Under the pieces are notes generated by a model, which saw only the letters and a program-made list of their open reading frames with translations, ran no database searches and was not told the origin of the DNA. A DNA stretch of 64,000 nucleotides from Bacteroidales bacterium. Its GTDB lineage: Bacteria > Bacteroidota > Bacteroidia > Bacteroidales > F082. The position numbers were made by a program, and so were the translations under genes. This document shows positions 10,170 through 29,042 of this stretch, one piece after another. Numbering within the stretch: position 1 is the stretch's first letter; each line of letters begins with the position of its first letter. The stretch covers positions 5,970 through 69,969 of the forward strand of contig JAGBQJ010000013.1 in NCBI GenBank assembly GCA_017632935.1, written 5' to 3'.

Positions 10170-11390
10170 ATGGATATTCTGAACCTCATACGCATATCGG
10201 CAAAAGCCTTGTTACGTAACAAGACGCGTACGGCGCTCTCCATGCTCGGCATCGTGATTGGTATCGCCGCTGTCATCGCCGTGGTCAACTTGGGCGAAGG
10301 ACTGAAACAGGGCACAGCCGACCAACTCTCCGACATGGGTACCAACCTCATCATGGTGATGCGTGCCAACCAGAGGCGCGGCGGCGTCAGCATGGGTTCC
10401 GGCAATGTGCAGTCGCTCAAGGTGCACGACTGTGAGCTGATTGCTAAAAATGCCAAGAACGTCACTATGGTCAGCCCTGTGGTGAACAGCGGCGGCCAGT
10501 TGGTGAACGGCTCCAAAAACTGGTCGGGGACGGTCTATGGTGGCTCGCCCGATTACCTTGAAATCCGTAAATACGAAATCGCCACGGGTGTCAACTTCAC
10601 CGACGATGACGTGAAGAAATATGCCAAGGTCGGCTTGATAGGCCAGACCATCGTGAAAGAGCTGTTTGACGACGGCGAAGACCCCATTGGCAAGATTATC
10701 CGCGTGGGCAACATGCCGTTTAAGGTCATCGGCACGTTGAAGGAAAAAGGACAAAACGGCATGGGTATGGACCAGGATGACCTCGTGGTTATGCCTTATA
10801 GCACCGTGCAGAAGCGTATGTTGGGTCAGGACTTCATTCAGCAGATTGTGTGTTCGGCAGCTTCCGAGAGCGTGGCCGATGCCGCGGTGGAAGAGATAGA
10901 AAGTATCTTGAGGGTGTCGCATAAGATTCCCGAGGGGGGCGAAAATGACTTCGAGGTGCGTACCCAGCAAGAAATGCTCGAGATGATGTCGTCAATGACG
11001 GGCATGATTACTACGGTCTTGGTCGCCATCGCATTGATTTCATTGCTCGTGGGCTGTATCGGCATCATGAACATCATGTATGTCACCGTGACGGAACGCA
11101 CCAAGGAAATCGGTTTGCGTATGTCCATCGGAGCCAAGAACTCGGCCATCCTGATGCAGTTCCTCACCGAGAGTATCATTTTGAGTTTGATTGGTGGCGT
11201 CATTGGTTTGTTGTTGGGCATTGGACTGTCGTATATCGTGGCCATGGCCATGTCGATGCCGTTCATTGTCAACGTGCCGTGGATGTTCATTTCCTTTGTG
11301 TCCTGCGCCATCTTGGGCCTCATCTCGGGTTTCTTCCCCGCCTTGAAGGCCTCGCGCACCGACCCCATCAATGCTTTGCGATACGAATGA
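10170..11390 (+). CDS. ABC transporter permease (MacB/FtsX-like)
   Basis: The start is set at the ATG at 10170 (MDILNLIRISAKALLRNKTRT), 1 nt after the ATPase stop. It has a MacB periplasmic domain and a C-terminal FtsX TM bundle. Confidence 0.9.
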   Translation: MDILNLIRISAKALLRNKTRTALSMLGIVIGIAAVIAVVNLGEGLKQGTADQLSDMGTNLIMVMRANQRRGGVSMGSGNVQSLKVHDCELIAKNAKNVTMVSPVVNSGGQLVNGSKNWSGTVYGGSPDYLEIRKYEIATGVNFTDDDVKKYAKVGLIGQTIVKELFDDGEDPIGKIIRVGNMPFKVIGTLKEKGQNGMGMDQDDLVVMPYSTVQKRMLGQDFIQQIVCSAASESVADAAVEEIESILRVSHKIPEGGENDFEVRTQQEMLEMMSSMTGMITTVLVAIALISLLVGCIGIMNIMYVTVTERTKEIGLRMSIGAKNSAILMQFLTESIILSLIGGVIGLLLGIGLSYIVAMAMSMPFIVNVPWMFISFVSCAILGLISGFFPALKASRTDPINALRYE

Positions 11391-13466: not shown

Positions 13467-13539
13467 GCTTCCGTAGCTCAGTTGGTAGAGCACCTGACTC
13501 TTAATCAGGGTGTCCAGGGTTCGACCCCCTGCGGGAGTA
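13467..13539 (+). tRNA. tRNA-Lys (anticodon CTT)
   Basis: Hand-folded cloverleaf. Acceptor GCTTCCG/CGGGAGT (two G-U pairs); D arm GCTC-AGTTGGTA-GAGC; anticodon arm CCTGA-CTCTTAA-TCAGG; T arm CAGGG-TTCGACC-CCCTG; discriminator A. CCA is not encoded. Confidence 0.85.
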
Positions 13540-13546
13540 CTTCAAA
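13527..13546. repeat. attL: 20-bp direct repeat (tRNA 3' end plus 7 nt)
   Basis: CCCTGCGGGAGTACTTCAAA is identical to 37211-37230. Confidence 0.75.
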
Positions 13547-13552
13547 TCAGCA

Positions 13553-13588: not shown

Positions 13589-13764
13589 ATATCTATTTCT
13601 GGCGTGTTTTTGGCGTGATAGCACAAAAAAACACCCTGAAACGGCTTGCTTCAGGGTGCAGTTGCAATTCAATTTCCTATGTGGAAATCTGTTGCAAAGG
13701 TAACACTTTTTCAGATACTTACAACTATACTCCCATTCTTTTTTTGAGTACGGTGTCTGACTGG

Positions 13765-13831
13765 CTGACGAAGGCTGCGGCTATAAAGCTTCCACCAAAA
13801 GGCGACAACCCCACTCCGCAGCCTTTGGCAG
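13765..13831. repeat. Long hairpin repeat, copy 1
   Basis: Arms CTGACGAAGGCTGCGG and CCGCAGCCTTTGGCAG (imperfect), ~35-nt loop. It is a paralog of the 13938-14004 element. Confidence 0.6.
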
Positions 13832-13937
13832 ACAGGCAGCCCTCCGAATCCCTTTAACTGCTAGAACGGAGATTGCGGATTTTGAGCGTGAATGAGAAAC
13901 AAGAGCGGGGAAACGCAAACCCACTTTTAGCCGAGGG

Positions 13938-14004
13938 CTGACAAAGGTTGCGGCTAATAAGCTCCCTAAAAGATGCGAAATCTGACCTCCGCAACCTTTG
14001 TCAG
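13938..14004. repeat. Long hairpin repeat, copy 2
   Basis: Perfect 16-bp arms CTGACAAAGGTTGCGG and CCGCAACCTTTGTCAG. Relative to copy 1 the stem carries a paired change (C-G to T-A). Confidence 0.6.
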
Positions 14005-14062
14005 ACATCGGATTAACAATAACACTACAATTGAACGAGAGGGCGTATTTCGCGCCCTACGA

Positions 14063-14125: not shown

Positions 14126-14812
14126 TTACGCCTTGTTGATTTTGCGACCGACCTTTTCGGCTCTTGTCTTGATGATGAACGAGCCGAAGCCACGGAGATA
14201 GACATTCTCTCCCTTGGCGGCATAAGTCAAGTAGAAGCGAACGGCATCGCCGACTTCTGCCCAACTGCCAACAGGAACGGACACACCCATAGACGGGTCG
14301 GTTTCTTCGGTGTTGAAGATGCCGATTTTTTTCTGGGTGAGGTTGTAGGCCACGACGATGAAGTTGGCTTCGGCTGGCTTGTCGATCTGCTCTGCTGCGG
14401 CAGGCTCAGCGTAGAAGTCCTTCACATCGTTGGTGAGAGTGACCACGCTTTCGAGCATAGGTGATTCGATGCGCTCACCGCTGCCGATGCCTTCCATCAG
14501 GGAGAGGTCAACCGTCTTGACATCATCCACAATGGCGGCGGCAGCTGCCAATTGATGGACAAGCATGTTGCGACGGGTTCTGCCACTGGTGACGGATGGA
14601 TAGAGCGAGGCAAGCTGCTCAGTGGTCAACTGCCCAGCAAGCCCCTGAATCTCTCTGAAGTAGTTGCGCTGCGCCATCTGTGCAGCGGTCTTGGGGTCTT
14701 TCTGCGATTGTGGAAGGCCTTTCATGTAGGCGATGCCATTCCACGAGGCACCAATAACGGTACCAACTTTTCCCTTGAATCCGCCTAAGATTCCTTGCTT
14801 TATTTTGCCCAT
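14126..14812 (-). CDS. Hypothetical protein, paralog 3 of a tandem triplet (family not recognised with certainty)
   Basis: 228 aa. The N-terminus MGKIKQGILGGFKGKVGTVIGASWNGIAYMKGLPQSQK is shared with the two upstream genes. Confidence 0.7.
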   Translation of the reverse strand: MGKIKQGILGGFKGKVGTVIGASWNGIAYMKGLPQSQKDPKTAAQMAQRNYFREIQGLAGQLTTEQLASLYPSVTSGRTRRNMLVHQLAAAAAIVDDVKTVDLSLMEGIGSGERIESPMLESVVTLTNDVKDFYAEPAAAEQIDKPAEANFIVVAYNLTQKKIGIFNTEETDPSMGVSVPVGSWAEVGDAVRFYLTYAAKGENVYLRGFGSFIIKTRAEKVGRKINKA

Positions 14813-14836
14813 GGTTATAGTGTATTTAGGTTAGTA

Positions 14837-15595
14837 TTACGGTTGCTTATTTTGTATAGTTGGTAGGGACTTGGTAGGGAGCGGGTCAGTACCTGATTCG
14901 GGTTGTTTTTCCACTCCCATGTCCTTTTTCTTTTTGAGTGGCCGAGCGGGTCGATTGATGACACCCAAGGTGCCAAATCCGACCTTTGAGCGGTTTTGAC
15001 TGGTGACAAACATGAATCCTGAGAACTCGTCGCGGGGATTGCCGTAAGGCTTCACATTGACTTCGAAGGATTGTTTGCCAGTGCTTTTCAGCGTCACTGG
15101 AGAAGCGATGAGAAACAGCTTCTGCTGCGTGATGTTGGCAACCAAGATGACAGGATAGTCGTCTGGGTGCTGGTCGCGGTAGTAGGTCACGGCCTCCCAA
15201 GAGATTTGGAGGTCGGAACGATTGGCATTGACCGAGACCGCCGGAAGGTCGGTCGTCGGGGAATTGCCGAGAGTGGTCAGGTTGTCGAGGTCGACGGTTC
15301 TGGTCTTGTCGATGACAGCCGCATAGGAAGCCAATTGCTGAACGAGCAGATTCCTGCGAGTCATGCCCTTGGGCTTCTTTGGGTAGATGAATTCCAAATC
15401 CTCGTTGGAGAGGGACATCGAGAGAGAGACCAACTCTTTGAAATAGCCTTGCTGCATCTTCTGGTTGCCTGACCTGCTCTTCTTGTAGGACTGAGGCAAA
15501 CCTTTCATATAGAAGATGCCATTCCAACAGGAGCCGACCACAGTGCCGACTTTGCCACTAAATCCACCGAGGATGCCTTGTTTTATTTTGCCCAT
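14837..15595 (-). CDS. Hypothetical protein, paralog 2 of the tandem triplet (with an extra basic C-terminal tail)
   Basis: 252 aa. N-terminus MGKIKQGILGGFSGKVGTVVGSCWNGIFYMKGLPQSYK. The C-terminal ~40 aa are K/P-rich. Confidence 0.7.
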   Translation of the reverse strand: MGKIKQGILGGFSGKVGTVVGSCWNGIFYMKGLPQSYKKSRSGNQKMQQGYFKELVSLSMSLSNEDLEFIYPKKPKGMTRRNLLVQQLASYAAVIDKTRTVDLDNLTTLGNSPTTDLPAVSVNANRSDLQISWEAVTYYRDQHPDDYPVILVANITQQKLFLIASPVTLKSTGKQSFEVNVKPYGNPRDEFSGFMFVTSQNRSKVGFGTLGVINRPARPLKKKKDMGVEKQPESGTDPLPTKSLPTIQNKQP

Positions 15596-15670
15596 TGTGT
15601 TTCGATTTTGGTGTTTTCAAAAAAAAGCCGCCCGACTGGACGGCTTTTCAACATTCGACCCGATAAGCGA

Positions 15671-16342
15671 TTAGTCGCGCTTCTTGGGTTTGGCAGGACG
15701 CTTGGTGACGGCCATCGTGCCAAAACCAACGAGAGCAATCTTGGAGCCAGTGGCGAGCATGAAGCCGCTGAAAGTGTCTTCGGCTTCGCCGTAGGCGGCC
15801 AGACCGACATTGAACGACTGGGAACCAGTCGTGCCGATGGTGGCGGTGGAAGGCACCAGATAGACTTTCTTCTTGGTGACGTTGGCCACGAAGATGACGG
15901 GGTACTCCTCGCCGTGCTCAGCACGGAAGGCGTTGGCACCCTCCCAAGAAATGGTCAGGTTTTCGCCAGCAGCGGCGATGGTAACCTCTGGCAGGTCATC
16001 CGTCGGCGCGTTGCCGAGGGAGTTGATGTTGCCCAAGTCGACGCTCTTGGTGTCGCCATCGACGGTGGCGACAGCGGTGAGTTGCTTGACGAGGACGTTG
16101 TGACGGGTCATGCCGCTGATAGCCTCAGGGAACAAGAATTTCATCTGTTCGTCCGAGAACTGGGCGGCGATGTCCAGAACTTCCCTGAAGAAGCCGCGTT
16201 GCTTGGTCTGTGCTGCGGTCTTCGGGTTCTTGTGGGACTGGGCGAGGCCACGCATGTAGCTGATGCCGTTCCACGATGCACCGATGACGGTGCCAACCTT
16301 ACCTCTGAATCCTCCGAGGATTCCTTGCTTAATCTTTCCCAT
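15671..16342 (-). CDS. Hypothetical protein, paralog 1 of the tandem triplet
   Basis: 223 aa. N-terminus MGKIKQGILGGFRGKVGTVIGASWNGISYMRGLAQSHK. Confidence 0.7.
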   Translation of the reverse strand: MGKIKQGILGGFRGKVGTVIGASWNGISYMRGLAQSHKNPKTAAQTKQRGFFREVLDIAAQFSDEQMKFLFPEAISGMTRHNVLVKQLTAVATVDGDTKSVDLGNINSLGNAPTDDLPEVTIAAAGENLTISWEGANAFRAEHGEEYPVIFVANVTKKKVYLVPSTATIGTTGSQSFNVGLAAYGEAEDTFSGFMLATGSKIALVGFGTMAVTKRPAKPKKRD

Positions 16343-16391
16343 TGTTCTTATCTTTTTAGGGGTTAGTAATTTTGGTTAGCTATCTTTTTCG

Positions 16392-16399
16392 CAAATGTA
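16392..16399 (-). promoter_or_regulatory. -7 box (TACATTTG) for the paralog operon
   Basis: The reverse complement of caaatgta matches TAnnTTTG, ~50 nt upstream of the ATG at 16342. Confidence 0.5.
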
Positions 16400-16559
16400 T
16401 AATCTTTTTATTTACAGTAGGTTATACTGGTATTGCTTGCATTCTTTTGCGCTGGTTTGCGTAGTTTGGAGTGAAAAAAGATATTACTACACTCAAAAGA
16501 AATGAGACGATTGCGCCTTTGGACAAAAACGAGGTGGTTAAAAAAGCAAGTTCCCTAAC

Positions 16560-17690
16560 GGCAAACGGAGACCCGCGTTAGAGGGGCGTAGTTTATTTAG
16601 GGGCTTGGCTTTTTTAAGCACCGTACCCATAGAATGAGACATTAAGCGTTTACGACAAACCACTTTTCCAAATTCAGGGTGGCGGTGGGGACGATGGTGG
16701 TACGGAGCGGAGCTTTGCGGAGCGACACTTTTCCGAATACTCTACTTAGGGTGGTAGGTGGGGTAAGTGGTGGCACTTAGGAGCGAAGCGACTGCCCTTC
16801 TTTCCAAATTGTCAAAATAGGGTGGTTGGAGGGGTACGAGGTGGTACAGGAGCGGAGTTTACGAAGCGACTGTGCTTTCCAAATGCTCAAATAAGGGTGG
16901 TAGGTGGGGTTTGATGGTGGTTGGCCAGAGCGGAGCTTTAGCGGAGCGACCTGACCTGAACTTTGGGGTGGTGGCCGGGGGTGACGGCGGCACGGATGTG
17001 CGTTGGCTCAGCAGGTAAGGGGGAAAAGCGCCTGCGGCTAAGGGGCGGTGACACTCACGCAAGAATGAGAAAACCGAGCCTAAACGACTATACGAGAGTG
17101 GGATACCCTGCGCCCCGTTCGCGCCAGCGCGGCCGACCCGCCCGACAGGAGTCCGCGCACGGTTTCAATCCGAAACGGCGGCGGGCGTGCCTTTTGCGGC
17201 GGCGACCCCGAAGAGGCAGGCACCAGTATGGTCATTGCGGGCTGAGGTGGCAACGATGAGGGGACGAAACAAGATGCGCTTTAGCGCACCACAAAGGGAA
17301 CCGCCGGGCGGACGCGCAAGCAGGGGCGCAAAACAAAAGGGGCGCGGCGACCCCCGCTAATAAGTTGCGAGGTACGAGAACCGCTTGGGGGTACGGGGGG
17401 CGACAAGAAAGCCCCGAGCGAGCAAGGAGCCACGAAAGCGGTTGGCCTTGGAGCCGCAAACGCTCGCTGGAGCCGCGCCAGTGGAGCGCAGCGGAACGAG
17501 TGTCGCGGGACAGCGAAGAGCAGCGGCGGTGTTGCGCAAGGGCGGCAACCTGAAAAAGCGCACGACGTAGGAGCTCAGCATTTTTTCAGATTGACGCTCG
17601 TTATACCCTTGCGCACACCAAGGCAACCGCAAGAAGCGGCGACGAAGGGAACACCGATTTCCCCCTCCTGCTGAATTAGGTAGGTTGAGC
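16560..17690. other. ORF-free, G-rich (plus strand) non-coding block A; candidate structured RNA or repeat region
   Basis: Only short Arg/Ala/Gly/Pro-rich ORFs occur in all six frames. It is clearly GC-richer than the flanking genes and has many local GC hairpins (e.g. GTTGCgcaagggcgGCAAC, GCGCtttaGCGC). Confidence 0.5.
16663..16950. repeat. Four degenerate tandem repeats of 64-80 nt, plus a decayed fifth up to ~17010
   Basis: Unit: CTTTCCAAAT-n-AGGGTGGTAGGTGGGG-n-GGTGG-n-GGAGCGGAGCTTTRCGGAGCGAC. Unit ends are at 16726, 16792, 16870 and 16950. Confidence 0.65.
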
Positions 17691-17759
17691 GTTGGGATGA
17701 TGTGTCGTTTTTTACGTTTGTTTCGTTCTATCGTCCTTACGTCATACGTGCTTTCGACA

Positions 17760-18725
17760 CTATTTCAACCATTTTCTGTACTTGATCCAGACACGGAGCC
17801 AGATGCGGGCGATAGAGTCGATGGCATCACCAAATATCATCTTGCTGTATTTGTCGAAGTTTTGACCCCACTCGGTCTGCTCCATGAACTCTTGCATGGG
17901 CTGGGTGTTTTGGAAGGTCTCAGGAATGAGGTAGTATGAAAACAAGTAGGAGTATTGCGAAACGGCACTCATGAAATCCCATGTGTTGTCGTTATCGCCT
18001 CCCCAACCATGGGTGTATTTGCGCGTGGCCACATCGTTCTCAACATCCAAAATGAAGGGTGTAGGTTTGAGTGGCAAGGGATAACCGTCTGGATCGTAGA
18101 AGAAGCGGTTGTTGTCCTTGTCAATCTTGTAGGACTTGTTGACCTGGTCTTCCCATTTCTTCTCGATGGCTCCGTGAATGCCTTTCTCATCGGAGAATGG
18201 ACGACTGTCGCAATGCAGCGGCATGTGACAGTCGGCTATGTAGTGACTGAGGATGAAGAAACGCATGGCGATGTGGTTTCCCGTGGTAGCGATTGGACAT
18301 CCTCTGTCCTCACGGTGCAGCATCTTGAAGTTGTCGACGATGCTGTGGGATATGGACTCACATCGGTCGGCGCAGTTGCCAGCAACGCATTTGTAGGGCT
18401 TGTTGTACAACGGTGACGATTTCCGCATCAATTCATAGATGCTGTGGGTGGTAGGTAGTTTGTCGAAGGTGGTATAAGGACCGTCTTCAGTGGGCTGGTA
18501 TTTGACGATGTGGCTGGTGGACATGTCCTTGAACACCTCATCAGGGTACCAGGCACCTTGTATGACGAAGTCACGGTAGTTCTTGAACCATCTGACAAGG
18601 GCTTTTGCTTCCTTGCGGACGTCTTCGCTGACACCTTTGACAACGGCTTCGTTGTCGGTGGTGGCGATGACTTCCAATCTTTTTATGGCCATAAAGGCTA
18701 TCCATGCGTGGGAGTATTTTTTCAT
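17760..18725 (-). CDS. S1/P1 nuclease-like / zinc-dependent phospholipase C superfamily protein (putative)
   Basis: The start is set at Met 18725 (MKKYSHAWIAF) because a promoter box and a terminator occupy 18747-18788. The motif LSHYIADCHMPLHCD resembles the H-x-x-x-D-x-H-x-P-L-H metal site of S1/P1 nucleases. Confidence 0.55.
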   Translation of the reverse strand: MKKYSHAWIAFMAIKRLEVIATTDNEAVVKGVSEDVRKEAKALVRWFKNYRDFVIQGAWYPDEVFKDMSTSHIVKYQPTEDGPYTTFDKLPTTHSIYELMRKSSPLYNKPYKCVAGNCADRCESISHSIVDNFKMLHREDRGCPIATTGNHIAMRFFILSHYIADCHMPLHCDSRPFSDEKGIHGAIEKKWEDQVNKSYKIDKDNNRFFYDPDGYPLPLKPTPFILDVENDVATRKYTHGWGGDNDNTWDFMSAVSQYSYLFSYYLIPETFQNTQPMQEFMEQTEWGQNFDKYSKMIFGDAIDSIARIWLRVWIKYRKWLK

Positions 18726-18746
18726 AGTGTTGGCGTTTTGAGGCTT

Positions 18747-18754
18747 CAAAGATA
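18747..18754 (-). promoter_or_regulatory. -7 box (TATCTTTG) for the S1/P1-like gene
   Basis: The reverse complement of caaagata, 22 nt upstream of the ATG at 18725. Confidence 0.5.
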
Positions 18755-18757
18755 GTG

Positions 18758-18788
18758 AAAAAAATAGATTGCGGGTCAAGCCCGCAAT
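18758..18788 (-). terminator. Rho-independent terminator on the minus strand at the low-coordinate end of GC-rich block B
   Basis: Minus strand: ATTGCGGG-CTTGA-CCCGCAAT, then CTA, then TTTTTTT. There is no T-run on the plus-strand side. Confidence 0.6.
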
Positions 18789-18839
18789 GAGGGTTAGGCA
18801 ATGAGAGCTTTCAAGTAAGTAGATGCTTTAAGATAGCAG

Positions 18840-19870
18840 TTGAGGCAGCCGCTGGCGGGGTTTTTGCTCATCATTAAGCCCAAGCTGTGGGTAAGGCGCG
18901 ACGGCCTTTCATAAAGCTTTCTTGCAGGCGAGCCGCCTACATGCCAGATGAGGCCGCACTGGGCATGTGTCGTTTTTCTTTTCGTTGGTTTTTCGTACTA
19001 ACGTGCTTTCGTTATTCGTACTAACGAGCTGACGAAGAAGTTGGGGCTGAAAACGACTCTTGCCCAGGGCGATATAGAAGTGGAGGCAGGCCGTCGCGCG
19101 GCAGCTGGGCGGTGTTGCCGACGAACAGAGTGGCACCCGCAGGAACGAGGACGGCCACCCTGAGCGGCGGCATTACCGCACAGCATTGGGGAGGCAAGGT
19201 TGAAGCTTCCTTCTGCAAAAACCGTGACAGCGGCGGCTTGGTCGGTTAAGGCTAAAAAGAGGACTTATAGGACTGATGGGGCTTATAGAGAAGTCGGTGC
19301 TCTCATACGGGGTGCGGCTGCTGGTATTGGCCGCGTAGGTGAGCGGAACAGGCGTTTTGTGGGTGAGAGACGGCGCGACCGACTACGGCACAACAAGCTT
19401 CTTTTTATGTGTGGCTTTCCAGCGATGGTGTGGCTGGTGCGGTTGGGCGACCTGACGACGGACTGTAGCGGAGCGAGCAGACAACGGCGGAGTTTACGGA
19501 GCCATTGTCTGCCCGTCGGAGCGGAAGGTAGTTGTCAGGGCGCGAAGGGTGGGACTCTCTCGATGAAGCTGAGGGAGCATCGTTTGCGAAGGTGAAAACG
19601 CCCGTGTAGCGACCGTAGCGGCGAATGGCAGCAGCTTAGGCTTGTGCGGCTGGTTGGGATGAACACGATGTGGAGCCACCTAAGCGATGCGAGCAGGCGC
19701 AGGGGAAGGCAATGCGGAGAGGCGTTAATGGAGCGTCGGAACACAGTGAGGAACGAACCGTGTTCCGACGCGGAATGGTAGCCCGTAGCACTGACGGCCA
19801 CAAGACAAACGCTTCGCTGGGGGCGGAACACCTTGACGGGGATGGGGTGGTGATGCTATATGATAATGGT
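18840..19870. other. ORF-free, G-rich non-coding block B; candidate structured RNA
   Basis: No credible ORF in any frame. It contains a copy of the block-A repeat unit (about 19395-19512) and several strong hairpins (GCAGACAA/TTGTCTGC at 19477-19512; CGGAACAC/GTGTTCCG near 19737-19770). Confidence 0.5.
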
Positions 19871-19943
19871 CACCAAAGAGGTCATTTGCAAGCCTTGTTT
19901 TGTGATTTTTTATAATAAGGTATTTTGCCTGACAATAATTGCT

Positions 19944-19951
19944 TATATTTG
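19944..19951 (+). promoter_or_regulatory. -7 box (TATATTTG), with a TTTG -33-like element at 19924-19927; candidate promoter of the 8-gene operon
   Basis: Matches TAnnTTTG. The spacing to the upstream TTTG is 16 nt. It implies a ~300-nt AT-rich leader before 20258. Confidence 0.4.
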
Positions 19952-20257
19952 CGGCATGAATTGGCGCGAATTGTAGGCGCAAGGATTTTTGTAATAACAA
20001 TCTAAACCGTTAAGAAATAAAGAAATACACAAATACAAACATAAGACATAGCAAAGCATAACGACAACTTTCTTCTGCTTTAAAAATTGCCAATTAATCA
20101 CGAAGAAAATCTCTTGAAATTGTCAGTATGCCCACCTATAGCGTGGGACTGGACTATTTTCTGGAGATTAGGGTTACGGCAATTACCCAAAGCAGCGGGA
20201 AACGGTTAGGTTTCACGCTTTTTTATTGTCGTTCAGAAAAATACAAACAAAAAAAAG

Positions 20258-21568
20258 ATGTATATGAAAAGGCCATTTAGAATAAAAACAATAAAGAGAG
20301 CCAGAAAATGGATGAAACATCAATACGATGTGATAGCGGTGTTGGCCGTATCTTGTGTGGCTATTCTGTCTTCTTGCTCTGGTGATATAAATTCAAATTT
20401 TGATTCCCATTTTACCAATGATGGTTATTTAATACAGGATAGCACAAAACAGGATAATAAAGTACCCTTGACAAAAGCAAAGTTTTATGTTGAGGTCTCT
20501 GGAAGTATGAATGGCTTTTTTAGAGCTGGACAGCCGACAGATTTCAAAAAAGATGTTTGGCAAATACTCAGTTATTATTCACCTATTGCGCCTGGCGTGA
20601 CTATTTTGACAAATAATGGTGATGAAGGTAAAACTTATGATTTGAGTAATTTCCAGACTCAAATGAACACTGGTGCTTTTGTTTCGACCGCTTCAACGAG
20701 AGTACCTTTGATGCTTCAATCTATTATTGATAATTTGGATGCGGATAACGGGGAGGTTGCAGTACTTATTTCAGATATGAAATACAGTCCTGTTGGGCAA
20801 GCTGCGCCCAAGGTGCTGTTGACACAATACAGCACTGATGTCAGCAAGATCTTTGGACAGTACGGTAAAGCTATAAGTCTGGTTTGCGCCACATCTAATT
20901 ATCTGGACAAAAAAGGAAATTCCATTTGCGATGCTTCGCCATATTATTTTCTGATAATTGGCAACGACAGCGGTGTTGCAGAAATGCGTGATGGTATTTC
21001 CACCCTATTAACCAATGCTGGCAGGTTCGTTGACAACATTGAGAGCGGATTTAATTATGGCGGGATTAAGGAGAGTTTCGGTATTCCGAAAAAATGTTTC
21101 CAGATGGATATAAACGAGCCAACATTTGTTGAGTATGAAGAGGCTGATTCTTACGACACCTGCATCATCAATTTAAAAGTGGATTTGGCACCTTATCGTT
21201 GGATTCTGACCGATGAAAGCTATTTTGCAAGAGCTTTCAAGGCAAAAACCCTCTACGGAGCCAACCTTGTTGTAGATGACGTGAACATTGTAGTAAAAAA
21301 CATCACTGACAAGCAGTTGAAACGTACAGCAGAGGCCACGGTAAGACTAAAGCTGTTCAATATGCCCACAGATTCCGATGTCATTGAATGGACATTAGAG
21401 TTGCCTGACACGGATTACACTTTGTTTGGACAATTCTGTGGCGCGACTGCCGAAGAAGATGTTACCAAATCATATTCCATAGAAGATTTCCTTGTTGGTA
21501 TGTTCTACGGTGGTGTGGTAAATACAACGCTTAATCCCAATTACATTTTAGTTTCAAAAAATAGTTAG
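20258..21568 (+). CDS. vWA-like lipoprotein (operon gene 1)
   Basis: The alternative start at 20312 gives the lipoprotein signal MKHQYDVIAVLAVSCVAILSSC. KFYVEVSGSMNGFF is a degenerate MIDAS (E-x-S-x-S) and VAVLISDMKYS is a vWA beta-4-like strand. Confidence 0.6.
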   Translation: MYMKRPFRIKTIKRARKWMKHQYDVIAVLAVSCVAILSSCSGDINSNFDSHFTNDGYLIQDSTKQDNKVPLTKAKFYVEVSGSMNGFFRAGQPTDFKKDVWQILSYYSPIAPGVTILTNNGDEGKTYDLSNFQTQMNTGAFVSTASTRVPLMLQSIIDNLDADNGEVAVLISDMKYSPVGQAAPKVLLTQYSTDVSKIFGQYGKAISLVCATSNYLDKKGNSICDASPYYFLIIGNDSGVAEMRDGISTLLTNAGRFVDNIESGFNYGGIKESFGIPKKCFQMDINEPTFVEYEEADSYDTCIINLKVDLAPYRWILTDESYFARAFKAKTLYGANLVVDDVNIVVKNITDKQLKRTAEATVRLKLFNMPTDSDVIEWTLELPDTDYTLFGQFCGATAEEDVTKSYSIEDFLVGMFYGGVVNTTLNPNYILVSKNS

Positions 21569-21573
21569 TCGTT

Positions 21574-22017
21574 ATGAAATTACTGAAGCTGTATCAATGG
21601 ATCGCAGGAAAGTTGACCGAATTTTGCGCTCCATTCCAAAACAACGAGAGCTTGTATCAACAAGCCAGAGCCTTTTGGGGCAAGTTGGAAGGCATTTCAA
21701 CAATACTTTTAATCATCGCAGTGGTGATAGGTGTTTTGTTTGCCGTCATCTACTACAAGCCATACAACAACAAGCCAGGAAGACACTATACCCCCAAGTA
21801 TTGGGTTATTTTCCTGATTATAACATTTGTGGTGGCTTTTCTGTTGACATTGGGATTTGAATATATCTCAGTGGCACCACACTTAAAAGGCGCAATGTTG
21901 CTTGAAACTAAAATTGCACTTGGGAATGGAATCTATGCTTCAGCATTGTATTTCATTGTTTCGGTTTTGTGGTGCAACGCGCTACCGACTAACGCTTATC
22001 GATTGTTTGAATTCTAA
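21574..22017 (+). CDS. Small integral membrane protein, 3 TM (operon gene 2)
   Basis: Hydrophobic segments ISTILLIIAVVIGVLFAVIYY, YWVIFLIITFVVAFLLTLGF and IYASALYFIVSVLWCNAL. It starts 5 nt after gene 1. Confidence 0.65.
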   Translation: MKLLKLYQWIAGKLTEFCAPFQNNESLYQQARAFWGKLEGISTILLIIAVVIGVLFAVIYYKPYNNKPGRHYTPKYWVIFLIITFVVAFLLTLGFEYISVAPHLKGAMLLETKIALGNGIYASALYFIVSVLWCNALPTNAYRLFEF

Positions 22018-22029
22018 ACCCAACCCGAT

Positions 22030-23427
22030 ATGAAAAAAGTATTTGTTTTTTGCATTGGAGGTACTGGCATTCGCGTGATGAAGAGCATCACGATGCTGAT
22101 GGCAAGCGGAATGAGTACCAGCGGTTTTACCGTTGTCCCTGTTATCCTTGACCCGCACTTGGATTTAGAGGAAAAGAAGAATTTGCACTCGTTGATAGAA
22201 TCATACGAGGAAATATATCGACACTCAGTCAACAATGGGACATCAACGTTGAATTCTCTTGATGGCTTTTTCAATTCTGAAATGCTTACCATCGGAGAAC
22301 TCAATGAACAACTCAATGACACCCAACAAGCGGCTGGAAACACTGAAAAGTTCCGTTCATATATCAACGTGGCCAACCTTGGTGCAGATAATGTGAACAA
22401 CTATTTCGTACAGACGCTGTTTTCAAATAAGAATCTAAACAATCCTTTGTCGGTCGGCTTCAAGGGGAATCCCAATGTCGGTACCGTAGTGCTCGGTGAA
22501 ATGATTGAGGGAGCGGATTGGTTCAAAGCGTTTAAGACCAAATGCGAGAAAGACGACAGGGTATTTATTATTAGCTCCATCTTTGGAGGCACTGGGGCTT
22601 CAGGTTATCCGCTGCTGGAGAAAAAGATTAGAGGAGCTTCTGATAATCCAACAGTTAAAAATGCACTGATGGGAGCAGTGACTGTGTTGCCGTACTACGG
22701 GCTAAAAGATCCTACGACAACGGGCAGTGACATTGACTCGGCTAACTTCTACACTAAGACAAAAGCGGCTCTTGCCTATTACCAGAACACTGTGCAGTCG
22801 GATTATCTTTATTACGCAGGAGAAAAGACTTTGAGGCAGGTCTATGAGAATGACGAAAAGAAGCAAGAGGACACCGCTAACTTCATTGAACTGGTTGCCG
22901 CATCAGCCTTGTTTGATTTTCTAAAGAGAGAAAGACCGGACAGAAAACAATATATGACCAGGGCAATTGACGATGACGTGGAGTCATTAGACCTTGTGAC
23001 GATGGGCAGTGGCTATAAGGAAATCGTCAAGTGTGTTGCCGACTATATGATTTTGAGAACCTTTATTCAAAATCTTCCCAACGAGAAATACTTCCCTTTG
23101 AAGAAGAACAGAGGACTTGATGGAGGTTTTTACAAAGATGCAGCATTCCAATCATTGGTGCGCTTTACTGAGAAATACTATCAATGGTATTATGAACTTT
23201 CGACGAACAATCGTGCGTTTGCTCCATTGCACTACGACAGCATTAAGCAGATGGATGGATGGGTAAAAACCATCGACCTTGACGCAAAGGATGATTCATA
23301 CTATCTGCTCCGAATGATTGAGGCCAGCAATAGATACACAAAGAAGGATCATAGCAACAAATTCAGGTTCTTCCTGCAATTCGCCTATGAAGCAATAAAT
23401 GGTTACACACAGAAAATAATGAAATAA
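22030..23427 (+). CDS. Tubulin/FtsZ-superfamily-like GTPase (FtsZl-1-like, putative; operon gene 3)
   Basis: N-terminal T1-like loop VFVFCIGGTGIRV and T4-like signature SSIFGGTGASG (nt 22585-22605; compare the tubulin signature [SAG]GGTG[SA]G). No obvious FtsZ C-terminal domain. Confidence 0.55.
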   Translation: MKKVFVFCIGGTGIRVMKSITMLMASGMSTSGFTVVPVILDPHLDLEEKKNLHSLIESYEEIYRHSVNNGTSTLNSLDGFFNSEMLTIGELNEQLNDTQQAAGNTEKFRSYINVANLGADNVNNYFVQTLFSNKNLNNPLSVGFKGNPNVGTVVLGEMIEGADWFKAFKTKCEKDDRVFIISSIFGGTGASGYPLLEKKIRGASDNPTVKNALMGAVTVLPYYGLKDPTTTGSDIDSANFYTKTKAALAYYQNTVQSDYLYYAGEKTLRQVYENDEKKQEDTANFIELVAASALFDFLKRERPDRKQYMTRAIDDDVESLDLVTMGSGYKEIVKCVADYMILRTFIQNLPNEKYFPLKKNRGLDGGFYKDAAFQSLVRFTEKYYQWYYELSTNNRAFAPLHYDSIKQMDGWVKTIDLDAKDDSYYLLRMIEASNRYTKKDHSNKFRFFLQFAYEAINGYTQKIMK

Positions 23428-23430
23428 GAT

Positions 23431-26400
23431 ATGGCAAAAGTTGATTTAAATATTGTTGATAGAGGCACTAACAGTTCCGAATGGAAAGCAGAAGGAACGC
23501 CTTTGCAATCTGGCGACCTTGACAAAGTGCTTGAACAGAAGACCGACAATAGTGGTGCATTGAACTCGCTTCCCACACCTTTTGCCAGGTTTTTTGTCGC
23601 TCGCGAAGCTTTTAGAAGAGTCAATGAAGAGAAGCTGAATCCAAAGGAAGGGGCTGGCTTTGCCTATACGCAATTAGTTTCTGATATCCTTGATGTCTAT
23701 GAACTGTTGTTTAATCTGAAATACCACAAGAACAACACTTGGAAAGATGGTCAAAAGCTGGAGCTGAGAGAATGGAATAGAAAGGAGAATCTCGATTATC
23801 TCAAAGCGAAGATGCCTGTTCTATATAATTCTGTTGTAGATTACTACAAGACAGATATCCTCGAGGACAAACTGTATTTTCTCGTCTATACTGAGAATGG
23901 CAAAGAAGTGTTGTTGGCTTGCAGCTCCCCCATCACAGGCTTTGTCACACCGCCAGACATGGACAAGGCTGTTCTGAAGAAAGACAACACCGACACTATC
24001 TGTTTTACAGGTGAGCAATACCAAAACCTGCACATTAGGAGAAAATCAGGCGGGGAGTATTTCAGAGGTGATGTCAGACTGTTTGACAAGAGAGATGCTG
24101 AGTTTAAGAATTACATGTATTCAATGTTGTTTGGCACTGATACCGTTGACGAGAGATTTAAGGCCATCAAGGAATATGTGCGTAGTTTCAACAATGACCC
24201 AGAGATACGCAACGATTTTAGATTAAAGACAACTCCGGTGTTGACCGACCAGAATGACGGTTTGGTAATAAATGGGCTTTGCATACAGTCTTCAGATGAA
24301 ATTGATATCAACAGCTATTTCACTGACACCATGATTCGAGTACCTTATCGCATTTCGAGAGACACATTCAAATCGGTCGTTTATCAGAACGATGTTCAAG
24401 GTAGAAATTATGACTATTTGCTGCCTTTCAAGCCTGAAGTGATGAATCTGTTTGATGGAAAAGAACTTGACTCTGATGTACACATCAACAGAAATTCCGT
24501 AACGGTCACTTTACGCTATAATGGGAAGGAATACTCGAAAGAATACTCTCAAGACACCTTCCGTGCTGGTCAAGGTAGAATTGTTGACCTGCAAGGAGCG
24601 AAGATTAGCTTTGACCTTGGCATCTTCCCCAATATCCTATCCTATAAGGATGTCGAGAACAATTACTTCAAGGTGCTTGTGGTTGCAGCCGATGAAGATG
24701 CTGATGCCCCCAACTTCAATATCGACCAAATCAATCTTGCTTTTTTCAAGCAAGCTGAAAATGGTTGCAAGCAGATAAAAGAAGTTGTTCCTGAAGACAT
24801 GGCTGAATATGGCGTGGAGCCAGCAGCGGTACGTTCACGCCAAAAAACGGACGTAGAAGAAAGCGGCACCAAGTTCTATGAACTGTTTAACACGTCGTTT
24901 GACATGATTGAAATCAATGTCATGGGTGACACAGGTCTGTTGATGCCAGTATGGCAACACAGCCAAGCAAGCAATGAAACCTTTACCTATGCAATTGACC
25001 TTGGAACGTCCAATACATTTATGTCGCGTTGCAAGAATGACAGCCAAGGCAATCCGGACCTTAGCAGGAAGCCTGAACTCTTCAAGATGGATAAGACGAT
25101 GGTGAATTACATGCATGAGTATTCAGACGATACGCAGTATTCCATCACTCGACGCATAGAAGATTCGATTTTCAACAAGGCAAAAAAGAAAATCAAGACT
25201 GAATTTGTGCCAGCTGTCATCGATGGCAAGGACTATAGATTCCCCATCCGCACTGCTTTGTGTGGTATTCACAATAAGACCAAGAAGCCGAAATTGTTTG
25301 ACAACCACAACATCGCTTTCTTCTACGAGAAACTCATGGCGAACGACGACCAGGATGTGAACACCGACATCAAGTGGGAACAAGACGAGGACAAATTGCG
25401 CGTCTTTGTTAGAGAGCTGCTGCTCATCATCAAGTGCGATATTCTGCAAAGGAATGGCGACCTTGACAGAACCAATCTCGTTTGGTTCAGCCCATTGAGC
25501 TTTATGGGGAACACAAGAGAGGTTTATCAGAACATCTGGAACACTGAGCCAAAGAAAATACTGTTCATCCAGCCACAGCAAATCGTTCGCTATTCAGAAT
25601 CCGAGGCACCCTATTACTACTACAAGAAGATGGACTACATCAAGGATTCTGATGCCGTTACTGTCATCGATATTGGTGGTGGCTCGACTGATTTCGTGTA
25701 CTTCAAGGATAATGAGCCGCAAGTTGCCAATTCCGTCCATTTTGGATGCGATGTGCTCTGGGAAAATGGTTTCAATGCGTTTGCCAATGTTAGGGAGAAT
25801 GGTATATTCAAGAAATACGTTGACACTATTCGTTTCCAAAGGAAAGACCTTGAAGACTTGAATGAGTGCTTCAAGAATGTTGATTCCGTGAAGACCAAGG
25901 ATGTTATCAATTTCTGGCTTAGCAATGCCAAGGATTGTGACATCATCAAGTTCATGAGCCAGGACTTCAAACCCGTGTTTGCTTATCACTTAACAAGCAT
26001 CCTTTACTACATGGCCAATATGTACAAGGATAAAGGACTTGAAGCCCCGAGAACCGTGGTATTTAGCGGAAACGGCAGCAAGTACATCGACAATTTCATT
26101 TCGAGCGAAAGCAACATCCTGAAAGAAATTATTGATTTGATATTTGCGACAGTGTTTGGAGGAACGCATAATGTAAACATTAAGCTTCCTGATGAACGCA
26201 AGGAGTCGACCTGTTATGGTGGTTTGTATCGTGACAAGAACGCTCCGATAGTTAAAGATGTCGTTTACCAAGGCGATGTAACAAAGAGCTACGAAAAGGT
26301 GGGCGACATGAATAGCAACTTAGATTCGTTGAAATCTGTGCTGATGACCAAGTATAAGGATCTTGCTGCCTTATATAAGTCCGTCTTGGATTTGCTCAAA

Positions 26401-26592
26401 AAAGAGAAAATCATCGACGGGACTTCAGATACTCGTCGTTATGTCAGCAAGGCAGAGGAAGATATGGGTACACCATTCACTACCTACTACAAGACGCAAG
26501 TCAAGGAAAAGTATGGTGAAGAAGTTATCTATAACGATTCCGTGTTTTTCTTGCCCGTAATCAACAAGGTTTTTGAAATGACTAAAATCTAA
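23431..26592 (+). CDS. Large (1053 aa) protein with a C-terminal Hsp70/actin-like (ASKHA) ATPase domain (operon gene 4)
   Basis: Phosphate-1 motif YAIDLGTSNTF (nt 24991-), phosphate-2 motif VIDIGGGSTDFVYF (nt 25663-), adenosine motif VVFSGNGSKY (nt 26056-). The N-terminal ~500 aa were not recognised. Confidence 0.6.
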   Translation: MAKVDLNIVDRGTNSSEWKAEGTPLQSGDLDKVLEQKTDNSGALNSLPTPFARFFVAREAFRRVNEEKLNPKEGAGFAYTQLVSDILDVYELLFNLKYHKNNTWKDGQKLELREWNRKENLDYLKAKMPVLYNSVVDYYKTDILEDKLYFLVYTENGKEVLLACSSPITGFVTPPDMDKAVLKKDNTDTICFTGEQYQNLHIRRKSGGEYFRGDVRLFDKRDAEFKNYMYSMLFGTDTVDERFKAIKEYVRSFNNDPEIRNDFRLKTTPVLTDQNDGLVINGLCIQSSDEIDINSYFTDTMIRVPYRISRDTFKSVVYQNDVQGRNYDYLLPFKPEVMNLFDGKELDSDVHINRNSVTVTLRYNGKEYSKEYSQDTFRAGQGRIVDLQGAKISFDLGIFPNILSYKDVENNYFKVLVVAADEDADAPNFNIDQINLAFFKQAENGCKQIKEVVPEDMAEYGVEPAAVRSRQKTDVEESGTKFYELFNTSFDMIEINVMGDTGLLMPVWQHSQASNETFTYAIDLGTSNTFMSRCKNDSQGNPDLSRKPELFKMDKTMVNYMHEYSDDTQYSITRRIEDSIFNKAKKKIKTEFVPAVIDGKDYRFPIRTALCGIHNKTKKPKLFDNHNIAFFYEKLMANDDQDVNTDIKWEQDEDKLRVFVRELLLIIKCDILQRNGDLDRTNLVWFSPLSFMGNTREVYQNIWNTEPKKILFIQPQQIVRYSESEAPYYYYKKMDYIKDSDAVTVIDIGGGSTDFVYFKDNEPQVANSVHFGCDVLWENGFNAFANVRENGIFKKYVDTIRFQRKDLEDLNECFKNVDSVKTKDVINFWLSNAKDCDIIKFMSQDFKPVFAYHLTSILYYMANMYKDKGLEAPRTVVFSGNGSKYIDNFISSESNILKEIIDLIFATVFGGTHNVNIKLPDERKESTCYGGLYRDKNAPIVKDVVYQGDVTKSYEKVGDMNSNLDSLKSVLMTKYKDLAALYKSVLDLLKKEKIIDGTSDTRRYVSKAEEDMGTPFTTYYKTQVKEKYGEEVIYNDSVFFLPVINKVFEMTKI

Positions 26593-26597
26593 AGGCT

Positions 26598-28208
26598 ATG
26601 CTTGTTATTTCATTTGTAGCGTTTGGCCTTTGCCTTTGCTTTCAACTAAAGTATTTTCTTGAAACAAGGAAGCAACGAGAGTTATACTATCATTTCTTCA
26701 AAAAGAAGCAGCCATACGATGTTAGTTTAACTGAAGTTAATACAGAAGTCTATACTCAGTTAGTGCAAGTAGGTGAAGAAGGTTCAGACTTAAATCAGCT
26801 TATTGAGGAGATTAACCACTATATTCTTAAAACCAAAGGCACTACTGATTTTGCTGTCATACAAAACAAGGTAGAGCGCAAGTTGAATATGCGGTATGAC
26901 CAATCTGTTGCTAAATTGTCGTTTCCAACCCATTTCGGTCTGATGGGAACCTTCCTGGGGGTTTTTATTGGAGTTTTAATGTTTATTATTGGCTTTGATA
27001 GTACAAATGGAATAACGGACAATTCAATAAAGAACTTGCTTGAGGGCGTTCTTGTCTCTATGCTAACCAGTTTATGCGGATTGGGTCTGACCACATGGAA
27101 TAATGCCAGGGCTGGAGAAGCGAGAAAGAAGATAGAAGAAGATAAGAATGAGTTCTATGATTTTGTACAGACAGAGTTGATGCCTTCGCTGGATGTTAGT
27201 ATGGTAGCTGCTATCAGTAAATTACATCAAACAGTTGACCGTTTTGAACCAGCATTTGACAGGGTTATCAATCGTTTCCAAACCACGTTTGACAATTGCA
27301 CAAAGGCATTTGGCGATAGCTTCGAAAAGAATGTTAGGGCTGTTGCTACTGCGGTAGATGTGATGGGTAAAAACATGGATAAAATCAATGAAAATATCGA
27401 CCTTCAAGAGAGACTCCTTGCTACATTTAAGAGTGGTGAGCTGGTGCAAGGACTTGACAGATACATTGAGGCATCCAACAACTTCGTCAGTATTACCCAA
27501 TCGCTCAATAAGTTTGAAGAGGCTCGCAGGATGATGTTGGCGGCCACGCAAGAGGCCATCAATCTTCAGAACGCATATAGTGACTCGTTGCAGGTTCCTC
27601 GTGAAGTTGCCGTGCGCATCAATCAGATACTGGATAGAATTAAAGACTTCGAGGAGAATATAAATCGCATCGGAGGTCAACTTGAAAGAAGGGATATACT
27701 TGGCAATGATGTTGTGAACAAATTACAGGAACAAATCAGTGGCATATCGAAAAAGGGCAAGATTGCGGACAAGTATTTGGAAATAGCTGATGGCCGGTTG
27801 GAGGATTTATACGCTCAACAAACCAAGGTAATAAACGAGATGAACAGGCGATATAGAGAAGCACTTGAAGGACACATAGACGGCTTTGAGAAGATGATTG
27901 TGCATCAAACCGAGGAGCTTGAAAAGCGTCATGGTGACTTTATGAAGGCCATTGAAGAGCGGCTGACCATTGAAGATGTGCGCCAAGAATTTGTGAATTT
28001 GGGCAAACTGAAGGACATTGATGGAAAGATGGCCGAAGTTTCAAAGCGTGTTCCTACTTCTGACGAAATACAAAAGGCTGTTCAAAAAGCCATGCAAGAT
28101 GCAGTTCAACCAATTCAGAAGGAATTGGATGAAATGAAGAAAGACTTTAGAAAGCAAATGGAAGAATCCAAATCTGGCGTTTTCGGAGGCCTGTTTGGTA
28201 GGCGTTGA
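26598..28208 (+). CDS. MotA/ExbB/ZorA-like membrane protein with a long C-terminal coiled-coil tail (operon gene 5)
   Basis: TM1 is at the N-terminus. A MotA-type TM pair follows: FPTHFGLMGTFLGVFIGVLMFIIG and LLEGVLVSMLTSLCGLGLTTWNNA. The remaining ~360 aa are E/K/L/Q-rich and heptad-like. Confidence 0.65.
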   Translation: MLVISFVAFGLCLCFQLKYFLETRKQRELYYHFFKKKQPYDVSLTEVNTEVYTQLVQVGEEGSDLNQLIEEINHYILKTKGTTDFAVIQNKVERKLNMRYDQSVAKLSFPTHFGLMGTFLGVFIGVLMFIIGFDSTNGITDNSIKNLLEGVLVSMLTSLCGLGLTTWNNARAGEARKKIEEDKNEFYDFVQTELMPSLDVSMVAAISKLHQTVDRFEPAFDRVINRFQTTFDNCTKAFGDSFEKNVRAVATAVDVMGKNMDKINENIDLQERLLATFKSGELVQGLDRYIEASNNFVSITQSLNKFEEARRMMLAATQEAINLQNAYSDSLQVPREVAVRINQILDRIKDFEENINRIGGQLERRDILGNDVVNKLQEQISGISKKGKIADKYLEIADGRLEDLYAQQTKVINEMNRRYREALEGHIDGFEKMIVHQTEELEKRHGDFMKAIEERLTIEDVRQEFVNLGKLKDIDGKMAEVSKRVPTSDEIQKAVQKAMQDAVQPIQKELDEMKKDFRKQMEESKSGVFGGLFGRR

Positions 28209-28219
28209 TACTGAGCATT

Positions 28220-29041: not shown

Positions 29042-29042
29042 A

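Follow-up and report, generated by a model that had tools for sequence, protein, structure and literature searches.

The locus described here raises the question of what occupies more than a kilobase of DNA that encodes no protein between two genes of a rumen bacterium. The window, i.e., the whole 64,000-nucleotide (nt) stretch analysed, comes from the chromosome of an uncultured Bacteroidales bacterium of the rumen whose nearest contigs are RUG-type metagenome-assembled genomes. The element in question, block B (18790-19900), lies in it next to a weakly S1/P1-nuclease-like gene. A preliminary description, made from the sequence alone, had called block B G-rich and free of open reading frames (ORFs) and had suggested that it may be one independent non-coding RNA gene of ~1 kb on the minus strand. 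Both observations hold: the ORFs within 18790-19900 are all short, with 131 amino acids (aa) at most, and begin with TTG or GTG, and the GC content is 0.558 with a GC skew of +0.254 (19001-20000). The conserved, non-coding and highly structured nature of the block and its relatedness to block A, an ORF-free stretch on the other side of the S1/P1-like gene, also stand, but the stand-alone gene does not. Instead, block B consists of two separable modules, B1 and B2, of a larger non-coding array.

Block B consists of two separable folded modules

The modules were located by BLAST with the window's blocks in a set of genomic loci (referred to by L-numbers), made up of 80 loci fetched via the S1/P1-like protein, a metagenome scan with an invariant block-B motif and two look-ups of homologues of DUF6266, a protein family encoded beside the array. 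The scan gave at least 120 matches, many of them chance matches from GC-rich soil contigs, and the distribution obtained is a lower bound. Contigs of rumen and gut Bacteroidales contain full copies of both modules, at least ~45 of B1 and at least 22 of B2; the two modules occur apart, in differing copy numbers and with genes between them. Homology ends at ~19868 in all loci, and the sequence past B2 diverges at once between them. The modules and their main parts are as follows.

18800..19255, strand provisional (plus slightly favoured): module B1, a folded domain of ~430-460 nt
18848-18867 with 19215-19234: closing helices of B1, invariant
18896-18906 with 19089-19099: 11-bp helix of B1, invariant
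18969-18978 with 19049-19057, and 19104-19134 with 19154-19184: covarying helices of B1
18979..19048: variable apical hairpin of B1, present in the window in its long form
~19290..19868: module B2, ~530-580 nt, including the hairpins at 19477-19512 and 19733-19771

Purifying selection acts on each module to preserve a specific single-strand fold with nested long-range helices and invariant purine-rich loops. For B1, the consensus fold that RNAalifold derived from an alignment of 46 copies has 70 pairs, of which 17 are changed on both sides; 16 of these fall in the long hairpin 18969-18978/19049-19057 and the domain 19104-19134/19154-19184 (for example, CAGAGTG/CACCCTG becomes CAAAAAG/CTTTTTG). 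The proportion of cells that are paired is 98.6%, against 92.6% with partners shuffled, and the number of cells changed on both sides is 190 against 66, while the covariation score of 0.209 (shuffled, 0.103) was reached in 0 of 500 shuffles. When partners were slid by 1-3 columns, pairing fell to 35-51%. Folding of 18800-19260 gave z = −5.5 relative to shuffled sequence on either strand.

The B2 alignment (23 copies, namely the window and 22 homologues) predicts 110 pairs, 16 of them changed on both sides compared with 9.4 in shuffles, a value reached in 0 of 300, and its slid controls leave 35-41% of cells paired. Both hairpins named in the preliminary description are present here, GCAGACAA...TTGTCTGC at 19477-19512 and CGGAACAC/GTGTTCCG at 19737-19767, the arms of the latter extending to 19733-19747 and 19757-19771 with 93% complementarity. 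Both are among the covarying hairpins of B2 and are conserved with compensatory changes in the homologues, at 19483/19506 (GC:12, AU:10) and 19487/19502 (GC:13, CG:8) in the first and at 19741/19764 (CG:10, AU:5, GC:5) in the second. Across the modules, 98-99% of helix cells are kept paired, and runs of 11-19 nt show no variation among the aligned copies.

The apical part of the long B1 hairpin exists in two unrelated forms of different lengths, which is behaviour typical of a variable stem-loop. The long form, found in the window, carries CGTnnnnACG mini-palindromes and has TTCGTACTAACG twice, whereas the short form of other B1 copies reads GCAGCGGAGCA...GCCC...CCGCTGC. Clusters of these mini-palindromes (e.g., CGTACTAACG) lie at 18985-19040 in the B1 long form and at 17713-17757, at the 3′ end of module A3 in block A, and are absent from the B1 short form; a role in protein binding is possible. 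The motif AGGAACGA is common to two loops, that of B1 helix 10 (19139-19152, GCAGGAACGAGGAC, unchanged in most copies) and that of a B2 hairpin (19748-19756, GAGGAACGAA).

The constraint on block B was assessed by comparing its divergence with that at the codon positions of the neighbouring gene in six related islands (L001, L002, L004, L009, L010, and L011). Mismatches in block B show no codon-phase bias (31/27/29, 18/28/23, and 64/76/63 over the three phases) and indels are mostly of 1 nt, while the adjacent gene has phase counts of 6/3/65 and zero indels; a protein-coding gene or a recent pseudogene is rejected on this pattern. In L001, L002, and L004, block B diverges by 6.5-8.2% and the third codon positions of the neighbouring gene by 18-25%, i.e., 2.5-4 times more, and in the more distant L009, L010, and L011 the corresponding values are 15-22% and ~30-34%. 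In none of the six comparisons did the divergence of block B exceed that of third positions, which implies stronger conservation than at nearly neutral sites, a difference that is clearest among the closest relatives.

The array and its cargo in a family of islands

Block B does not stand alone in the window but belongs to an integrative island of 23.7 kb, bounded by two copies of the 20-nt direct repeat CCCTGCGGGAGTACTTCAAA. The features of the island, from left to right, are listed below.

13529..13548, plus strand: attL, a copy of CCCTGCGGGAGTACTTCAAA at the 3′ end of tRNA-Lys(CTT)
14126..16342, minus strand: three paralogous DUF6266 genes (Pfam PF19781)
~16366-17760: ORF-free stretch of block A, between the DUF6266 genes and the 322-aa gene
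16525..17757: block A, the rest of the array that carries block B
16525-16650: A1 core hairpin
16650-16960: tandem repeats of 73-75 nt
16960-17700: A2-A3
17700-17757: tail of CGTnnnnACG repeats
17763..18728, minus strand: 322-aa cargo gene, weakly S1/P1-nuclease-like or zinc-phospholipase-C-like (sub-threshold Pfam match)
18768..18788: junction hairpin GAGATTGCGGG-TCAAG-CCCGCAATGAGG, the terminator stem of the preliminary description, with the minus-strand tail CTATTTTTTT at 18758-18767
18790-19900: block B, between the S1/P1-like gene and the eight-gene operon
19944..19951, plus strand: TATATTTG box, a Bacteroidetes-type −7 element right of the array
20258-31047, plus strand: eight-gene cargo operon
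26598-28208 and 28205-29041: ZorA-like and ZorB-like genes within the operon
35597-37033: integrase gene (Phage_integrase/SAM_5), at attR and 16 kb from the array; the island's sole recombinase
37213-37232: attR, a copy of CCCTGCGGGAGTACTTCAAA adjoining the tyrosine integrase gene

In several loci (L083, L133, L151, L168, L171, and L172), the 3′ end of block A (window ~17695) runs straight into B1, which shows that blocks A and B are parts of one array. Its order is DUF6266 genes (2-4), A1, 73-nt repeats, A2-A3, B1 (1-3 copies), B2, and variable cargo, and in total it spans ~2.5-3.5 kb with five module types and ~340 predicted base pairs over B1, B2, and A2-A3. Together with its 2-4 DUF6266 genes, the array forms the backbone that stays constant throughout a family of integrative islands from Bacteroidales of rumen and gut. 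Block A is folded in a similar way to block B: the A1 core hairpin shows compensatory changes in homologues, and in A2-A3 13 of the 159 pairs are changed on both sides (8.1 in shuffles, reached in 0 of 300), with 35-43% of cells paired in the slid controls of B2 and A2-A3. The copy of a block-A repeat that had been reported in block B reflects a real similarity of much smaller extent (only 20-47 nt at 70-86% identity), centred on the motif GCGGAG-N5-CGGAG. The 73-75-nt unit, in which a G-run (GGGTGGTAGGTGGGG) accompanies two GCGGAG(C) repeats 11 nt apart, is a variable-number tandem repeat of 2 to ~8 copies. The window has ~4 degenerate copies and L006 (2537-3095) has 7.6 copies of a 73-nt unit at 91% identity, the only locus in which Tandem Repeats Finder detects the array; short-word BLAST recovered only 3 units.

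Between the modules, many loci have cargo cassettes of low GC (mostly 0.30-0.45), in either orientation and some with several genes. At least 12 alternatives were found, one of which is the S1/P1-like gene; others encode a protein with a T9SS sorting tail, membrane proteins, a Y-family polymerase with a small partner ORF, a Schlafen AlbA_2 ATPase, T5orf172, AAA_14-DUF4143, a Sel1-repeat protein, SNase with Peptidase_M15_4, and HTH_17, and in L150 (1966-9739) a four-gene system sits between two B1-B2 pairs. In the window, the eight-gene operon to the right of the array, for which the TATATTTG box is likely the promoter, looks like an unusual Zorya-like defence system; besides the ZorA- and ZorB-like proteins it encodes DUF4357/PDC-S14-like, Endonuclease_NS, and tubulin/FtsZ-like (weak match) proteins and a 1053-aa protein with a Ppx/GppA (actin-fold) segment. 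It is followed by a gene for a primase-like protein with DUF6371 and a zinc ribbon, an AAA_25-HTH helicase-like gene, a 435-aa gene, and then the integrase. Neither a relaxase nor a rolling-circle Rep was detected among the island proteins scanned, the 435-aa protein being without assignment.

In sequence identity the islands are mosaics of one another (for L010, 97% in A3 but 77-80% in B), which points to frequent recombination between them. Isolated fragments of B1 (window 18844-18980) occur in L154 and L180 at ~7436-7832 and one of B2 (window 19309-19390) in L130 at 11155-11234, which suggests sub-modules or recombination scars. Several contigs (L003, L005, L007, L082, L093, L116, L180, and L200) end inside B1, and many assembled contigs stop shortly upstream of the S1/P1-like gene, which lies 150-600 nt from the contig end in L007, L018-L020, L029, L044, L047, L051, L052, L066, and L071. 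In array loci, breaks inside B1 are as expected, since tandem and dispersed copies of B1 break short-read assemblies. A sensitive blastn search of phage and plasmid collections with B1 and B2 gave no match, nor did the B1 core pattern match in viral contigs.

The S1/P1-like gene itself is loosely tied to the array. It sits at the A3|B1 junction in the window and its closest relatives, while in other loci that junction is empty or holds a different cassette, and 255 genomic loci encode the protein, most of them without the array. In ~70 other loci with this gene (Paludibacteraceae, Fibrobacter, Prevotella, and others), BLAST found no trace of the array and a covariance model of the B1 3′ domain found zero B1 copies. 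The label of the 322-aa protein derives from a sub-threshold Pfam match (PF02265, E = 0.0044, short of the family cut-off) and from a small number of precomputed domain hits. A few of its 671 homologues carry PF02265 or PF00882; a profile search against sequences of the Protein Data Bank (PDB) gave no match.

DUF6266, by comparison, follows the array closely. DUF6266 genes adjoin block A in L001, L004, L006, L007, L009, L010, L151, and L168, and all six loci fetched via DUF6266 homologues carry block A next to the DUF6266 cluster. In L201-L203 (assigned to Prevotella), a four-gene DUF6266 cluster adjoins a different, 500-aa integrase, and SNase and Peptidase_M15_4 genes lie between DUF6266 and A1, which indicates that the array and DUF6266 form a unit common to islands with different integration modules. 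The three paralogues of the window are 40-50% identical to one another, and the AlphaFold2 model (pLDDT 71) has a helical part and an Ig/FN3-like sandwich with disordered basic tails at both termini, the C terminus weakly matching an HU DNA-binding arm. Foldseek gave no significant match in the PDB or among viral structures, PHROGs and PADLOC were without match, and the literature makes no mention of the family.

Two further kinds of repeat were seen near the ends of the island. Repeats of the TTTTGGCGTGAT type occur at 13601-13625, 37063-37090, and 37178-37190 and look like arm-type sites of the integrase. Between the tRNA gene and the first DUF6266 gene are two similar palindromes of ~85 nt (13757-13839 and 13926-14016), the arms of which are CTGACTGGCTGACGAAGGCTGCGG and related sequence, with 35 nt between the arms of each pair.

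Structured RNA, structured DNA or recombination sites

Judged from their sequence, the modules may well act as large structured RNAs of the island. In order to find the strand from which such RNAs would be read, wobble pairs were counted in four ways, the cleanest of which uses helices predicted without G-U pairs and stacked columns that alternate between Watson-Crick and wobble pairs. The resulting numbers of wobble columns are as follows.

B1: plus strand 5, minus strand 2
B2: plus strand 1, minus strand 2
A2-A3: plus strand 1, minus strand 5

None of the four ways gave a consistent asymmetry, so that wobble pairs do not settle the sense strand, which the preliminary description had likewise left uncertain. 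Base composition would favour a plus-strand RNA: G exceeds C (0.38 vs. 0.21 in B2, 0.32 vs. 0.23 in B1), the conserved loops, such as that of B1 helix 10, are purine-rich and the apical loops are A-rich, while a minus-strand RNA would be pyrimidine-rich, as had been foreseen, with 32-38% C. Given this composition, the purine- and A-rich loops and the excess of G-U over A-C wobble columns in B1, B1 and B2 would most likely be read from the plus strand. The modules most likely give rise to large structured RNA domains in the service of the island, possibly as partners or scaffolds for the DUF6266 proteins, which look like nucleic-acid-binding proteins. Regulation of any one cargo gene does not seem to be their role, given that the cargo is replaced around modules that persist, and as conserved blocks they could also supply the homology through which islands exchange cargo by recombination.

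A number of observations weigh against a role as RNA, or against the evidence from which it is drawn. The wobble columns total 7 on the plus and 9 on the minus strand, a symmetry that is unusual for a strand-specific RNA and would fit a DNA function or modules read in different directions. The alignments yielded no promoter or terminator that is conserved for any of the modules. The motif GCGGAG-N5-CGGAG, with its spacing of one helical turn, and the CGTnnnnACG clusters look like protein sites on double-stranded DNA. In L009, L010, and L011, block B diverges more than the whole neighbouring gene, at about half to two-thirds of the third-position value. Most closing helices are invariant and hence give no covariation evidence, and the copies are related and mosaic, so that significance is inflated in the shuffle tests; a better case for the fold is made by the slid controls and by the large number of independent pair types. 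Finally, the link between DUF6266 and the array is one of co-location only, and the predicted fold has no informative match.

Several of these points would be explained if the modules were cis-acting DNA that folds when the island is single-stranded or replicating, i.e., an origin, an auxiliary replication, priming or packaging region, which we regard as possible but rather unlikely. Such DNA would serve the primase-like protein with DUF6371 and a zinc ribbon and the AAA_25 helicase-like protein, with DUF6266 or Rep proteins bound to the repeats, and would need no stable RNA. The wobble symmetry is what one would expect if neither G-T nor A-C pairs were favoured, the direct GCGGAG repeats one helical turn apart and the clustered CGTnnnnACG palindromes suit protein binding, and the 73-nt unit varies in copy number in the manner of iterons on a large scale. 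The presence of primase-like and helicase-like proteins and an integrase, the occurrence of cassettes in both orientations and the weak match of DUF6266 to the HU arm point the same way. The modules are, however, GC-rich (0.55-0.63) without an AT-rich unwinding region and lie ~11 kb from the replication genes, and these genes, like the integrase, vary among array-bearing islands. The scan of the island proteins revealed no relaxase or rolling-circle Rep, and ~2.5 kb with ~340 predicted pairs and invariant purine-rich loops would be of far greater complexity than known origins, single-strand initiation sites, and transfer origins. A more specific candidate of this kind, the single-stranded-DNA promoter or single-strand initiation site of a conjugative leading region, does not fit, as no relaxase domain was detected among the scanned island proteins and the cassettes are not co-oriented.

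Two further readings involve the junction hairpin. The preliminary description saw in 18758-18788 a clean minus-strand terminator, followed by the TATCTTTG promoter box of the next gene. The box is there (18747-18754, minus strand), and so are the minus-strand hairpin and its CTATTTTTTT tail, and the stem is conserved in those close relatives that have the hairpin, but the T-run is confined to the window and L002: L001, L003, and L008 read CTCAACAAAT instead, it is also absent in L004 and L005, and in L009-L011 there is no junction hairpin, the S1/P1 promoter box abutting B1. The alignments thus reject a conserved terminator. The hairpin has the form GAGATTGCGG(G/A)-loop-(C/T)CCGCAATGAGG, in which the stem covaries between G-C and A-T, and at least nine junction copies exist in other loci, at cassette-free A3|B1 junctions (L091, L137, and L165), between B1 copies (L154 and L173), between the repeats and A2 (L171), and left of another cassette (L192); it also occurs at a junction in L186. 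The window has it at 18768-18788 and at 5686-5705. This recurrence at gene-free junctions and on the host chromosome marks it as a small REP-like junction element, the seven Ts in the window being incidental, and the A1 hairpin likewise has its trailing minus-strand T-run in the window only. The copy at 5686-5705, outside the island, reads GAGATTGCGGGG-CTTC-GCCCGCAATGAGG and lies inside a larger palindrome, AAGCGCAGG...CCTGCGCTT, which suggests a REP-like family in the window's genome.

If the modules or the junction hairpin were folded recombination sites for the insertion and excision of cassettes, the array would be an integron-like platform, which is improbable. Integron attC sites are imperfect palindromes of 57-141 nt that are conserved mainly in structure, whereas the modules, at 430-580 nt, are 4-10 times longer and strongly conserved in sequence. 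Cassettes of either orientation occur, some of them multi-gene, and in 12 of 13 cassette junction pairs the two sides lack a common repeat of at least 9 nt that could be used as a core site. Nor is there an IntI-type integrase beside the array, the sole recombinase being the phage-type tyrosine integrase at the island end, which differs between islands that share the array. The resemblance is one of position, in that B1 copies and junction hairpins separate unrelated cargo genes that follow one another in mobile DNA, as do the folded elements of attC arrays and of clusters of attC sites lacking integron-integrases (CALINs). Moreover, the L192 cassette is flanked by a 16-nt duplication of the 3′ half of the hairpin, CAAGTCCGCAATGAGG, and L001 and L004 carry a 43-nt insert between two copies of CCGCAATGA. 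A structured element in consecutive intergenic regions, the DUF1874 motif, has been proposed to be attC-like before (PMC5737381).

We consider the single minus-strand gene of the preliminary description, which would be an RNA of ~1.1-1.25 kb with its start near the TATGTTTG box at 20036-20043 and its end at 18788-18758, to be very unlikely. It draws on the canonical hairpin and T7 in the window, a TAnnTTTG box on the minus strand at 20036-20043, the slight excess of minus-strand wobble columns in B2 and A2-A3, and a copy of the junction hairpin in L005 that pairs via G-U only on the minus strand. Conservation of the terminator, which that description had itself named as one test of the model, is not borne out by alignment, and the single gene fails on the T-run missing from L001, L003, L004, L005, and L008 as well as on the hairpin missing from L009-L011. 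Cassette-free loci have B1 abutting A3 with no terminator between, the sequence right of B2 is unrelated between loci, which leaves no conserved promoter there, B1 and B2 occur separately, in varying copy number and with genes between, and the RNA would have the pyrimidine-rich composition given above. Decayed coding sequence or functionless selfish repeat debris, as the lack of ORFs in a mosaic mobile island, the variable copy number, and the module fragments (of B1 in L154 and L180, of B2 in L130) might imply, is hardly credible in view of a substitution pattern that is not protein-like, a divergence well below that of third codon positions, compensatory changes that keep 98-99% of helix cells paired, and the invariant stretches of 11-19 nt.

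Relation to known elements and meaning for the islands

The Rfam scan proposed in the preliminary description matched no family in blocks A or B, the models covered including those of GOLLD, ROOL, OLE, HEARO, group I and II introns, and RNase P. With Rfam 15 at the gathering threshold, only the tRNA-Lys was found in the whole window, and at E ≤ 10 the region 15500-20600 gave only sub-threshold chance matches (in block B, CDKN2B-AS_2 with 17.3 bits against a threshold of 50). The best reading of the array, as far as the sequence can tell, is that of a new family of large structured RNA modules, the nearest known kind of which would be the large ornate RNAs GOLLD, ROOL, and OLE. These are single RNAs of ~580-800 nt, and RNAs of this kind are found close to tRNA genes and in DNA of mobile or prophage-like character; ROOL first came to light in metagenomes of the rumen (PMC5737381, PMC12286853). 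Like them, the modules extend over hundreds of nt with a conserved, covarying multi-junction structure in mobile DNA near a tRNA gene, and the plus strand of the array is G- and purine-rich, as is the sense strand of GOLLD, ROOL, and OLE. B1, B2, and A2-A3 all have the more than 400 nt of conserved covarying structure by which large ornate non-coding RNAs are recognised. Unlike these RNAs, the array has several distinct modules (~2.5-3.5 kb) in variable copy number with protein genes between them and resides in a Bacteroidales host.

Two other comparisons concern parts of the system. The 21-nt junction hairpin (ATTGCGGG-loop-CCCGCAAT, with conserved GAG and GAGG flanks) resembles REP/BIME palindromes in occurring at several junctions and on the host chromosome, a likeness that covers this small hairpin only and not the modules of 430-580 nt. 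The island as a whole resembles P4-like satellites and island cargo hotspots, with an integrase at a tRNA gene, primase- and helicase-like genes, and variable defence-type cargo (the Zorya-like operon, Schlafen, T5orf172, AAA_14-DUF4143, and nucleases). In known defence hotspots, however, the framework consists of protein-coding genes, whereas here it consists of structured non-coding modules. A further and distinctly tentative proposal, less likely than the role as RNA in itself, is that the array is a hitherto undescribed type of mobile-element backbone, forming with DUF6266 a multi-module folded RNA or single-stranded-DNA core machinery that also organises the cargo hotspot, the non-coding framework taking the place of the protein genes or attC sites of other elements.

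Should the modules prove to be RNAs, they would be among the largest conserved structured non-coding blocks of bacteria outside ribosomal RNA, in an array that is found in an abundant, uncultured rumen lineage and matches no Rfam family. The physical tie between the array and DUF6266, a family without assigned function, is the first functional lead for both. B1 modules mark where the cargo genes of these islands should be sought and, being repeated, explain the contig breaks in array loci. This is a mobile island that keeps a non-coding framework constant and swaps the cargo between its parts, which bears on how defence hotspots arise.

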